64,000 nt of DNA from the NCBI RefSeq assembly GCF_988243305.1, contig NZ_OZ547136.1; one strand, given 5' to 3'. Under the pieces are notes generated by a model that was not told the DNA's origin, made no database searches, and worked only from the letters and a program-made list of their open reading frames with translations. A program made the position numbers and the translations under genes. Shown here one piece after another: positions 4,969 through 10,484 of this stretch (the first letter of the stretch is position 1; each line of letters begins with the position of its first letter).

Positions 4969-6990
4969 ATGAAAATGACACGGCTTTATCCTCTGGCCTT
5001 GGGGGGATTATTGCTCCCCGCCATTGCTAATGCCCAGACTTCACAGCAAGACGAAAGCACGCTGGTGGTTACCGCCAGTAAACAATCTTCCCGCTCGGCA
5101 TCAGCCAACAACGTCTCGTCTACTGTTGTCAGCGCGCCGGAATTAAGCGACGCCGGCGTCACCGCCAGCGACAAACTCCCCAGAGTCTTGCCCGGGCTCA
5201 ATATTGAAAATAGCGGCAACATGCTTTTTTCGACGATCTCGCTACGCGGCGTCTCTTCAGCGCAGGACTTCTATAACCCCGCCGTCACCCTGTATGTCGA
5301 TGGCGTCCCTCAGCTTTCCACCAACACCATCCAGGCGCTTACCGATGTGCAAAGCGTGGAGTTGCTGCGAGGCCCACAGGGAACGTTATATGGCAAAAGC
5401 GCTCAGGGCGGGATCATCAACATCGTCACCCAGCAGCCGGACAGCACGCCGCGCGGCTATATTGAAGGCGGCGTCAGTAGCCGCGACAGTTATCGAAGTA
5501 AGTTCAACCTGAGCGGCCCCATTCAGGATGGCCTGCTGTACGGCAGCGTCACCCTGTTACGCCAGGTTGATGACGGCGACATGATTAACCCCGCGACGGG
5601 AAGCGATGACTTAGGCGGCACCCGCGCCAGCATAGGGAATGTGAAACTGCGTCTGGCGCCGGACGATCAGCCCTGGGAAATGGGCTTTGCCGCCTCACGC
5701 GAATGTACCCGCGCCACCCAGGACGCCTATGTGGGATGGAATGATATTAAGGGCCGTAAGCTGTCGATCAGCGATGGTTCACCAGACCCGTACATGCGGC
5801 GCTGCACTGACAGCCAGACCCTGAGTGGGAAATACACCACCGATGACTGGGTTTTCAACCTGATCAGCGCCTGGCAGCAGCAGCATTATTCGCGCACCTT
5901 CCCTTCCGGTTCGTTAATCGTCAATATGCCTCAGCGCTGGAATCAGGATGTGCAGGAGCTGCGCGCCGCAACCCTGGGCGATGCGCGTACCGTTGATATG
6001 GTGTTTGGGCTGTACCGGCAGAACACCCGCGAGAAGTTAAATTCAGCCTACGACATGCCGACAATGCCTTATTTAAGCAGTACCGGCTATACCACCGCTG
6101 AAACGCTGGCCGCATACAGTGACCTGACCTGGCATTTAACCGATCGTTTTGATATCGGCGGCGGCGTGCGCTTCTCGCATGATAAATCCAGTACACAATA
6201 TCACGGCAGCATGCTCGGCAACCCGTTTGGCGACCAGGGTAAGAGCAATGACGATCAGGTGCTCGGGCAGCTATCCGCAGGCTATATGCTGACCGATGAC
6301 TGGAGAGTGTATACCCGTGTAGCCCAGGGATATAAACCTTCCGGGTACAACATCGTGCCTACTGCGGGTCTTGATGCCAAACCGTTCGTCGCCGAGAAAT
6401 CCATCAACTATGAACTTGGCACCCGCTACGAAACCGCTGACGTCACGCTGCAAGCCGCGACGTTTTATACCCACACCAAAGACATGCAGCTTTACTCTGG
6501 CCCGGTCGAGATGCAGACATTAAGCAATGCGGGTAAAGCCGACGCCACCGGCGTTGAGCTTGAAGCGAAGTGGCGGTTTGCGCCAGGCTGGTCATGGGAT
6601 ATCAATGGCAACGTGATCCGTTCCGAATTCACCAATGACAGTGAGTTGTATCACGGTAACCGGGTGCCGTTCGTACCACGTTATGGCGCGGGAAGCAGCG
6701 TGAACGGCGTGATTGATACGCGCTATGGCGCACTGATGCCCCGACTGGCGGTTAATCTGGTCGGGCCGCATTATTTCGATGGCGACAACCAGTTGCGGCA
6801 AGGCACCTATGCCACCCTGGACAGCAGCCTGGGCTGGCAGGCGACTGAACGGATGAACATTTCCGTCTATGTCGATAACCTGTTCGACCGTCGTTACCGT
6901 ACCTATGGCTACATGAACGGCAGCAGCGCCGTCGCGCAGGTCAATATGGGTCGCACCGTCGGTATCAATACGCGAATTGATTTCTTCTGA
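4969..6990 (+). CDS. fyuA: TonB-dependent yersiniabactin/pesticin outer-membrane receptor FyuA (673 aa)
   Basis: Signal peptide, TonB-box region and C-terminal beta-barrel ending in aromatic residue F; 673 aa as expected. Confidence 0.9.
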   Translation: MKMTRLYPLALGGLLLPAIANAQTSQQDESTLVVTASKQSSRSASANNVSSTVVSAPELSDAGVTASDKLPRVLPGLNIENSGNMLFSTISLRGVSSAQDFYNPAVTLYVDGVPQLSTNTIQALTDVQSVELLRGPQGTLYGKSAQGGIINIVTQQPDSTPRGYIEGGVSSRDSYRSKFNLSGPIQDGLLYGSVTLLRQVDDGDMINPATGSDDLGGTRASIGNVKLRLAPDDQPWEMGFAASRECTRATQDAYVGWNDIKGRKLSISDGSPDPYMRRCTDSQTLSGKYTTDDWVFNLISAWQQQHYSRTFPSGSLIVNMPQRWNQDVQELRAATLGDARTVDMVFGLYRQNTREKLNSAYDMPTMPYLSSTGYTTAETLAAYSDLTWHLTDRFDIGGGVRFSHDKSSTQYHGSMLGNPFGDQGKSNDDQVLGQLSAGYMLTDDWRVYTRVAQGYKPSGYNIVPTAGLDAKPFVAEKSINYELGTRYETADVTLQAATFYTHTKDMQLYSGPVEMQTLSNAGKADATGVELEAKWRFAPGWSWDINGNVIRSEFTNDSELYHGNRVPFVPRYGAGSSVNGVIDTRYGALMPRLAVNLVGPHYFDGDNQLRQGTYATLDSSLGWQATERMNISVYVDNLFDRRYRTYGYMNGSSAVAQVNMGRTVGINTRIDFF

Positions 6991-6996
6991 TTATTG

Positions 6997-7027
6997 TAAA
7001 AGGGATACCGAAAAGGTATCCCTTTTA
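6997..7027 (+). terminator. Rho-independent terminator after fyuA
   Basis: AAAAGGGATACC-GAAA-AGGTATCCCTTTT hairpin directly after the stop codon. Confidence 0.6.
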
Positions 7028-7775
7028 CACCACTAGTTAAAACCAGTAACTCAGCAGAGTCGCAAAAAATATTAATCCATAGTGATTATTTAAACAATGA
7101 AATTGCGATTAGGATAAATAGATTTAACTTTCTCGTTCCTTTCTCTCCTTATACTAAAGAAATAATCATATCAAAATAAAAATTCACAACAGTGCAACAT
7201 TAAAAAATACAACCAACAAACAATCCTATATACAAGGCACATCTCCAGAATATAAAAGCACAGACAAACAACCTAAAAAAAACAACCCCATACATATAAA
7301 TTATTTTATAGGTAAAATAGATTATATATTCTCATAGCTACCACAAACTATACTAGCCTGAACTATATTTATTCTGCTGCAATCAATGCATACATAACAC
7401 AAATATCACTCAGGTACACTACTCAAACCACGCTGGGATTTTTCCTCAAGTTATAATCATCACCCCGAAAATCATTCGGCATTTACTCATTAAATAGTCA
7501 CCCCATAGGCCTGTACATGTTTACTCAGAAATATACATCCTTTTCTCTGTCATAAACCCTCTAATTAATCATAAATAAATACTTGTGACACCAATCTTTT
7601 TCCTTAACGGAACGAATTGTTGTGTAGAAGGAGATAATATTATGTCAAAAAAAATATCAGCCATTGCTTATAACTCATTATATGTCAACATGGGTCACTA
7701 TAACGGAAGCAGTTGAGATCACTACCAAAGCCATAAAACAAAAAAATTACTCCTAGCGATATTTATCGTCATGCC

Positions 7776-10484
7776 TTGAGTGGCAACATCCTACTATCGG
7801 TCTATTTCCAGTCTCCTGTGATACTTAAGAAGATACAAACTTTTAATGGAAAAATAAAATTCAGGCAGTTTGTGGGAGACCTACTTGATAAACTATGCAT
7901 GCTTGACAGGGACGGTTTTATTTATGGTCAAAATTTAAGACTCTGTACAGAAGCTAGATATATTTGTCCTGTGCAACAAATTATAGATACCCCCCTGTTA
8001 CGCAAACTCAACCAGTTTCGTACGTTTGTTCGTAATGTCCGCCCGGGTGATGAACTGGATGTCCCGGCACAAGTTAGTGAAAAAAATTTAACCCCGCCGC
8101 CGGGTAACAGCAGTGGCAACCTTGAGCAACAGATAGCCAGTACTTCACAGCTAATTGGATCTCTGCTCGCCGAAGATATGAACAGCGAGCAAGCGGCAAA
8201 CATAGCACGTGGATGGGCCTCTTCTCAGGCTTCAGGGGTAATGACAGACTGGTTAAGCCGCTTCGGTACCGCAAGAATCACGCTGGGCGTGGATGAAGAT
8301 TTCAGCCTGAAGAACTCCCGTGACGGCAACCCTCGAAAATGGCGATTCGATGCAACAAACAGTGAACTATGTGCCGAACGTCACGAATGCTGAAATCACG
8401 CTGGCAGCCTCGAAGGACCCGGTGATTGCCGACAATAACGATCTCACGACACTAACAGCACCGTCGCTGATACAGAGGGCAATGCGATAGCCAACACTGA
8501 GGTAACATTTACTCTACCGGAAGATGTGAAGGCGAACTTCACGCTGAGCGATGGCGACAAAGCGGTTACTGATGCCGATGGCAAAGCGAAAGTCACGCTG
8601 AAAGGTACAAAAGCAGGCGCTCATACCGTGACAGCATCGATGGTTGGCGGTAAGAGTGAGCAGTTGGTGGTGAACTTTACTGCGGATACGCTCACTACGC
8701 AGGTTAATCTTAACGTTACCGAGGACAATTTCATCGCCAATAACATTGGAATGACCAGGCTACAGGCAACAGTGACTGATGGAAACGGCAACCCAGTAGA
8801 AGGTATAAAAGTTAATTTCCGTGGAACCTCCGTCACGCTAAGCAGCACCAGCGTTGAAACGGATGATCAGGTTTTCGCTGAAATTCTTGTGACAAGCACC
8901 GAGGTCGGACTAAAAACAGTTTCAGCCTCTCTGGCAGATAAACCTACTGAAGTCATCTCGCGATTACTGAATGCCAAGGTAGATGTTAATTCTGCGACGA
9001 TTACCAGTCAGGAGATACCTGAAGGTCAGGTCATGGTCGCACAAGACATAGCAGTTAAAGCTCACGTTAACGACCAGTTTGGCAACCCGGTGACGCATCA
9101 ACCCGCGACATTCAGTGCAGCGCCATCCTCGCAAATGATCATCAGCCAGAATACGGTCTCTACTAATACGCAGGGAGTAGCCGAGGTCACCATGACGCCT
9201 GAAAGAAACGGCTCGTATACTGTAAAAGCATCCCTAGCGAATGGAGCTTCACTTGAGAAACAACTGGAGGCTATTGATGAAAAACTGACACTCACGTCCA
9301 GTCCGCTTATCGGTGTCAATGCTCCTAAAGGCGCTACTCTGACGGCAATGCTAACCTCTGCAAATGGCACTCCAGTGGAGGGTCAGGTCATCAACTTTAG
9401 CGTAACGCTAGAAGGTGCGACGTTAAGTGGCGGAAAAGTGAGAACCAACTCTTCAGGTCAGGCTCCAGTCGTTCTGACCAGCAATAAAGTCGGTACATAT
9501 ACGGTGACTGCATCGTTCCATAACGGCGTCACAATACAGACACAGACAACCGTGAAGGTTACTGGCAACCCAAGCACCGCACATGTTGCTAGCTTTATCG
9601 CTGAACCGTCGACTATCGCCGCCACCAACAGTGATTTAAGTACCTTAAAGGCAACGGTTGAGGATGGCAGTGGTAACCTGATCGAAGGTCTCACTGTGTA
9701 CTTCGCCTTAAAAAACGGCTCCACCACATTAACGTCATTAACAGCGGTGACCGATCAAAACGGAATCGCGACAACAAGCGTGAAAGGAGCGATAACGGGG
9801 AGCGTCACTGTAAGCACAGTCACAAGCGCAGGTGGAATGCAAACAGTAGATATATCGCTAGTGGCAGGCCCAGCAGACGCCTCGCAGTCCATCCTTAAGA
9901 ACAACCAGTCATCACTGAAAGGGGACTTTACCGATAGTGCTGAGCTACATCTTGTTCTGCACGATATATCAGGCAATCCGATCAAAGTTTCTGAAGGGAT
10001 GGAATTTGTGCAATCAGGTACAAACGTGCCCTATATGAAAATTAGCGCAATTGATTACACTCAAAATATCAACGGTGATTACAAAGCTACTGTTACAGGA
10101 GACGGAGAGGGTATCGCAACGCTGATCCCCGTATTGAATGGTGTTCATCAGGCGGGCCTGAGTACCACGATAGAATTCATTAGCGCGGAAACCAGACCAA
10201 TGACGGGTACAGTGTCAGTGAATAGTGCAAACCTACCGACAGCTTCATTCCCTTCGCAGGGATTTACCGGGGCGTATTATCAGTTGAATAATGACAACTT
10301 TGCACCAGGAAAAACGGCGGCTGATTATTCGTTTTCAAGCTCGGCCTCCTGGGTAGGCGTTGATGCTACTGGTAAAGTGACATTCAAAAATGACGGTGAT
10401 AGCAATACAGTAATAATCACAGCGCCCCCAAGATCCGGTGGTGCTATTTACCAAACAGTTCCTCCTGAATCGCGTTCGGTGTGA
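7776..10484 (+). pseudogene. yeeJ: Decayed inverse-autotransporter adhesin gene (yeeJ-like): N-terminal segment fused by a large internal deletion to C-terminal Big-domain repeats, with frameshift and premature stop
   Basis: ORF 7776-8393 has the LysM-linker/beta-domain start (LRKLNQFRTF...DELDVPAQVSEK...ARITLGVDEDFSLKNS); alternate frame at 8355-8460 continues as Big-repeat sequence (MQQTVNYVPNVTNAEITLAASKDP); one-base frameshift near 8459; ORF 8526-10484 is Big-repeat-rich and ends early. Total ~2.7 kb versus ~7 kb for the intact gene. Confidence 0.65.

Follow-up and report, generated by a model that had tools for sequence, protein, structure and literature searches.

The locus downstream of fyuA raises the question of whether a 24-codon ORF, placed behind what looks like a textbook translation start in AT-rich DNA, is a gene in its own right. 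The window analysed is a stretch of 64,000 nucleotides (contig NZ_OZ547136.1 of assembly GCF_988243305.1), and all features described here are on its + strand. The small ORF (MSKKISAIAYNSLYVNMGHYNGSS) begins with an ATG at 7642-7644 and ends with a TGA at 7716. It is preceded by the Shine-Dalgarno sequence AAGGAG at 7628-7633, the GGAG of which ends 8 nt 5' of the ATG. An initial annotation proposed that this was a leader peptide, a small protein or a chance ORF in otherwise non-coding DNA. Direct reading of the sequence bore out the Shine-Dalgarno motif, the ATG and the 24 codons, with their coordinates. The surroundings are also AT-rich, as had been claimed, with a GC content of 28-36% over approximately 7050-7950, compared with 54-57% in fyuA (4969-6990), which ends 650 bp upstream of the small ORF.

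The AT-rich spacer is limited on its upstream side by the intrinsic terminator hairpin of fyuA at 6995-7029 (folding energy -24.1 kcal/mol, z = -7.35). This hairpin lies just 3' of the fyuA stop codon and has a symmetric 15 bp stem flanked by an A-run and a T-run; it probably acts as an intrinsic terminator in both directions.

Judged by sequence statistics only, the small ORF is not beyond chance. In the ORF listing there are 73 ORFs of at least 20 amino acids inside 5 kb, and the frame of the small ORF also appears there as a 43-aa ORF with an upstream GTG at 7585. The pattern AAGGAG-N5-9-ATG occurs four times in the window against 2.4 expected. This enrichment is non-significant (21 of 100 shuffled sequences reach four), and the motif alone proves nothing.

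The start site belongs to a longer gene. In an ICE-type HPI of E. coli (locus L002), the same Shine-Dalgarno sequence and ATG open a 308-codon ORF, here called orf308, whose product is the RefSeq hypothetical protein WP_000039790.1. The same protein is encoded from the same start in a second E. coli locus (L004) and in K. pneumoniae (L059). In the ICE-type HPI and in ICEKp, orf308 comes first after fyuA and has alpA as its immediate downstream neighbour; the order of the L002 island from fyuA onward is alpA, DUF2857, traR and hha. The ATG at 7642-7644 is the authentic start codon of the WP_000039790.1 family, since the same position is the annotated start of the 308-aa CDS in these three loci and of a 249-aa CDS in seven others (L003, L005 and L062-L066).

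Relatives of the orf308 protein are found across Enterobacterales, with 344 homologues at E ≤ 1e-3, nearly all of them 300-316 aa long and 40-75% identical. All 19 members of one alignment have the initiator methionine, as do at least 90% of the 116 members in another. Among 46 loci from different Enterobacterales species, alpA is directly downstream of orf308 in approximately 38, and the full order orf308-alpA-DUF2857-traR, also present in L002, L004 and L059, is found in approximately 35. An AAGGAG-type Shine-Dalgarno sequence (AAGGAG or AAGG) lies 7-9 nt 5' of the start in most of these divergent loci. The suggestion that the AAGGAG and ATG form a translation start was therefore sound, as a family of 308-aa genes has its conserved initiation site here. 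One cluster of homologues at 99% identity, with 1318 members, is named as Yersinia pestis; a search for contigs encoding its representative gave only a 1.6-kb contig without context.

Comparison of the orf308 protein with Pfam, NCBIfam and PHROGs gave no meaningful family match. The protein (approximately 308 aa) carries an N-terminal excisionase-like winged-helix domain of the MerR/excisionase type, at residues about 17-80. It differs from MerR and excisionase proteins (Xis, AlpA, RdfS, TorI) in that none of these databases matches it to their winged-helix domains, in the lack of a whole-chain structural match, and in having approximately 230 extra residues of unknown fold. This likeness is a property of the parent gene and not of the 24-aa ORF. 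The orf308 protein may bind DNA as an accessory factor or regulator in the excision/transfer module of the ICE, a role that would concern the parent gene and not the stub in the window. The orf308 family is a widespread ICE backbone family that has gone unannotated; its DNA-binding domain is excisionase-like, and the gene is located beside alpA.

In an alignment the window is nearly identical to L002 up to 7997, and two of the differences, each of a single base, are of consequence. The first is in a poly-A tract at 7647-7654 (codons 2-4), which is A8 in the window and A7 in the intact gene; the additional A causes a frameshift. Codons 1-4 of the reported ORF at 7642-7716 (MSKK) are real orf308 codons, while codons 5-24 are out of frame until the TGA, and the 24-codon frame exists only because of the extra A after codon 4. 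In the original frame, orf308 continues as a remnant of codons 5 to approximately 34 at 7655-7745 (YQPLLITHYMSTWVTITEAVEITTKAIKQK), which includes the start of the winged-helix domain. The second difference is in a poly-A tract at 7740-7746, which is A7 in the window and A6 in L002 and nearly all other copies. It causes a second +1 frameshift, and codons approximately 35-118 are recognizable by homology in the third frame at 7746-7997 (ITPSDIYRHALSGNILLSVYFQ...QQIIDTPL). The additional A at 7740-7746 is either nearly private to the lineage of the window or a homopolymer assembly error.

With the frameshifts corrected, the window copy shows approximately 95% amino acid identity to WP_000039790.1 over codons 1-118, and it has the same Shine-Dalgarno sequence, ATG and first four codons. 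It differs by the additional A in codons 2-4, the additional A near codon 34 and the absence of codons 119-308. With two frameshifts and the loss of these codons, the window copy is a pseudogene remnant and cannot encode WP_000039790.1. It retains the start that characterizes the family, an AAGGAG-type Shine-Dalgarno sequence with an aligned initiator methionine. It has neither the continuous ORF of approximately 300-316 codons, with its invariant C-terminal block (TPLSRLFWLACKHN...PYKLLSIFEQWA), nor the synteny with alpA-DUF2857-traR, which is deleted in the window and replaced by a yeeJ remnant. The description of the surrounding DNA as otherwise non-coding does not hold, since everything from the ATG through 7997 is the remnant of a protein-coding gene. 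Beneath the small ORF itself, another frame encodes W17, T19, E22 and A23, which are invariant in both the 19- and the 116-member alignments.

Codon 118 of orf308 is the last of the island. A three-way alignment places the junction of HPI and chromosome at 7997/7998, where orf308 codon 118 is joined in frame to yeeJ codon 93 (Leu118 of orf308 followed by Leu93 of YeeJ). HPI homology stops at 7997, and homology to K-12 yeeJ extends over 7997-8319 (yeeJ nt 276-607), with the yeeJ remnant itself at 7998-8319 (nt 277-607; 92.8% identity to K-12 by blastn). The window is missing orf308 after codon 118, alpA, attR, the 313-bp asnT-yeeJ spacer and yeeJ codons 1-92. In sequence identical to the window, PGAP labels the yeeJ remnant 'inverse autotransporter beta domain-containing protein, frameshifted'. 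Homology to the first 1.9 kb of K-12 yeeJ is lost at 8319-8320, where the sequence picks up again in the Ig-like repeat region (ORFs 8320-8490 and 8526-10484). Such a break implies a large deletion inside yeeJ, which would have removed the beta-barrel.

A border of this kind is known. Schubert et al. (2009; PMC2606025) described a 'unique deletion of the fyuA border' in all ECOR HPIs except that of ECOR31. There is no material difference between the common-type E. coli HPI described there and the window, where the island likewise extends only a short way past fyuA, the right direct repeat is lost together with adjacent chromosomal sequence, and yeeJ is truncated. Frequent truncation of yeeJ beside asnT has also been reported (PMC5595812), and the fusion in the window fits this. 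The feature is ordinary, and it is already covered by RefSeq annotation and the border-deletion literature. The exact in-frame junction and a census of tract lengths are what the present analysis adds to PMC2606025.

For this census, positions 7000-8100 were compared by megablast with 5426 complete E. coli genomes, of which 2228 have the region. K-12-type genomes matched only from 7997 onward, inside yeeJ, and the K-12 genomes examined have no HPI. Exact versions of each tract were then counted in the 2245 E. coli records that carry the region. At the first tract (7647-7654), the A8 of the window was present in 558 records and the alternative A7 in 1281; approximately 400 records had other variants of the first-tract 77-mer, and the rows sampled from these include A7 with a SNP and A8 with a SNP. 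At the second tract (7740-7746), the A7 of the window was found in eight records and A6 in 2140. Homopolymer lengths from long reads can be wrong, and some of the A7/A8 calls, as well as the near-private second A7, could be sequencing errors.

A difference of one or two homopolymer bases gives the same start three annotations. For A7/A6 strains, an ST131 isolate among them, RefSeq has a 249-aa chimeric CDS from ATG 7642 (WP_000039780.1 or WP_000039786.1). In A8/A6 strains there is a 236-aa CDS from the internal Met14, at window position 7682 (WP_001323489.1). In A8/A7 sequence identical to the window, PGAP calls a frameshifted pseudogene from 7682. All three proteins come from the same locus and the same HPI-yeeJ fusion as in the window, the 249-aa form also sharing its ATG, and each is on at least 1000 contigs. 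The first 118 residues of the 249-aa chimeric CDS are not YeeJ at all.

Taken with a probability of roughly 0.93, the best explanation is that the small ORF is the 5' stub of the dead gene orf308, thrown out of frame after codon 4, truncated, and fused to the yeeJ remnant. Direct observation covers the homology to orf308, the start that the two have in common, both frameshifts, the junction and the frequencies in the population. Slippage in the A7 tract of codons 2-4 presumably added one A to give A8, so that a ribosome starting at ATG 7642 would read MSKK, then 20 out-of-frame codons, and would stop at 7716. The additional A at 7740-7746 is a second lesion. The known deletion of the fyuA-side HPI border took everything after codon 118 and joined orf308 in frame to the yeeJ remnant. 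On any transcript of the region, the strong Shine-Dalgarno sequence would still load ribosomes and yield a 24-aa nonsense peptide, which is expected to be functionless. Of the proposals made for the ORF, chance comes closest as regards its length and peptide, while its start site is not a product of chance. The textbook-looking Shine-Dalgarno sequence and ATG in supposedly non-coding AT-rich DNA are a fossil start site, which makes the result a clean negative, and the small ORF should therefore stay out of catalogues of small proteins and leader peptides.

One observation that speaks against a stub is that 558 genomes share the exact A8 allele, which looks like conservation; however, the sampled A8 strains mostly belong to one closely related haplotype group. 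Six A8 alleles could be placed among the 14 sampled loci, and five of them fall into this group, with no more than 15 differences over 5.2 kb.

It is very unlikely that the extra A of the first tract is a sequencing or assembly artefact and that the start of the gene is really in frame in the strain of the window. Such an error would be of a familiar kind, as homopolymer indels are the commonest long-read error, and the second-tract A7, with eight records in 2245, would suit it. Frameshifts in yeeJ have also been considered possible assembly artefacts (PMC5595812). However, the first-tract A8 is found in 558 independent assemblies, which make up a coherent haplotype group. An identical 1.1-kb sequence is present in the RefSeq genome JE86-ST05, which may be the source genome and so is not independent proof. 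Even with a corrected call, orf308 would stay truncated at codon 118.

Loss of single bases may also have affected this gene elsewhere. Paauw et al. (PMC2801613) reported that the first hypothetical gene after fyuA in ECOR31 is broken by a 1-bp deletion. This gene is likely to be orf308, and its disruption would be a further sign that the homopolymer runs are prone to indels.

It is extremely improbable that the ORF encodes a genuine small protein, or a leader peptide controlling the 7776-8393 ORF or the yeeJ remnant through attenuation or translational coupling. The strong Shine-Dalgarno sequence with its ideal spacing and the presence of the exact allele in 558 E. coli records are what such a product would predict, and the 43-aa GTG-extended version has been called 'hypothetical protein', in just two HMP E. 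coli records. Against this, the reading frame is not conserved in homologous regions, which the initial annotation had itself named as the observation that would speak against a gene. From the same ATG, A7 alleles, the majority of the records, open an ORF of 249 or 308 codons, and divergent homologues one of approximately 308 codons; over the A7 alleles and all divergent homologues the range is 249 to 316 codons. Conserved length is likewise absent, and so is a conserved peptide with synonymous bias in its own frame, as only A8 alleles encode the peptide beyond K4. The 24-aa peptide is missing from a collection of 15 billion proteins.

The regulatory form of this proposal fares no better. An Rfam scan of 6800-8300 on both strands gave no leader, riboswitch or other match at E ≤ 1. 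No terminator-like or attenuator-like site was found in 6900-8100 by a simple terminator scan, which also failed to detect the 6995-7029 hairpin. The one promoter-like site given by a promoter scan of 6900-8100 is weak and lies beyond the small ORF, at 7935-7964. The 'gene' that would be regulated is a pseudogene too, with two disruptions. After the stop at 7716, the next start that could be used is 60 nt away, at 7776, and thus there is no arrangement for coupling.

Substitutions beneath the small ORF number only three in the sampled loci, which makes the comparison of frames weak on its own, and as far as they go they do not appear to favour the small-ORF frame. One of them, 7663 A>T, is synonymous in orf308 and changes Ile to Phe in the small ORF. 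In K. pneumoniae L059, a TCA>TCG change is synonymous in orf308 and interrupts the A-run (TCG-A6). In whole orf308 copies, changes respect the orf308 frame, as in this TCA>TCG change and in a K. pneumoniae copy with a 295-codon ORF from Met14. The exact DNA pattern GTAGAAGGAGATAATATTATGTCAAAAAAA gave 0 matches in a collection of genome contigs. One possible reason is that the representative genomes lack the allele, as L059 has TCG-A6 and K-12 genomes have no HPI.

The presence of two tract lengths in the population raises the idea that the A7/A8 tract is a contingency switch for a chimeric protein containing the orf308 winged-helix domain, with the 24-codon ORF as a by-product of the OFF state or with reinitiation at Met14 (7682); this is highly improbable. 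Even less credible is a slippage switch of a domesticated chimera, consisting of orf308 residues 1-118 and the YeeJ fragment, for which the 24-codon ORF would be the OFF read-out or a launch pad for reinitiation at Met14. Most HPI-positive E. coli, ST131 among them, would carry this chimera. With its place at codons 2-4, the tract is at a typical site for switches, and both of its lengths are common. The ON state leaves 118 codons intact, and these cover the DNA-binding domain. The protein may not need residues 1-13, since a ybt plasmid lineage of K. pneumoniae without the ATG keeps a 295-aa ORF from Met14.

The A8 allele is also present on at least two haplotype backgrounds: L053 has 21-24 differences from the A7 strains L005 and L062, and 39-40 from other A8 strains. 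This suggests either that A8 arose at least twice or that the L053 call, the single case on a second background, is an assembly error. Most sampled A8 strains belong to one related group, which fits a single inherited mutation. Compared with homopolymer contingency loci, a tract of A7-A8 would be short for a high-rate switch. A contingency locus would also be expected to have an intact, selectable gene in its ON phase. Here the ON product is a 249-aa chimera that lacks the conserved C-terminal 190 residues of orf308 and the ICE partners alpA, DUF2857 and traR, and its yeeJ part is also deleted. Moreover, the remnant has accumulated damaging changes: L053 carries M14I and E22G, and the window its second frameshift. 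Neutral decay at a slippage-prone tract accounts for this pattern better than does a phase switch under selection.

The spacer between fyuA and orf308 varies in structure. At 7284/7285, a 220-bp segment of the ICE-type HPI (L002) is missing in the window; it is flanked by imperfect A-rich direct repeats (AAAAAAACAACCC and AAAAAAACCACCCC), and small indels at 7282-7287 vary among strains. In K. pneumoniae L059, ISVsa5 is inserted between fyuA and orf308 (L059 positions 1077-2285).

In the plasmid-borne ybt lineage, seen on a K. pneumoniae IncFIB plasmid (NZ_CP031790.1; L060), an 11-bp deletion at approximately 2830-2871 of that locus removes the orf308 ATG, and the CDS, of 295 aa, starts at Met14. 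A further record labelled as a K. pneumoniae plasmid (NZ_CP079635.1; L061) was considered as an independent A8 event in Klebsiella and was rejected, since it carries the E. coli-type yeeJ junction. This record is 1.04 Mb long with five annotated features, and it is probably mislabelled or contaminated and not a Klebsiella plasmid.
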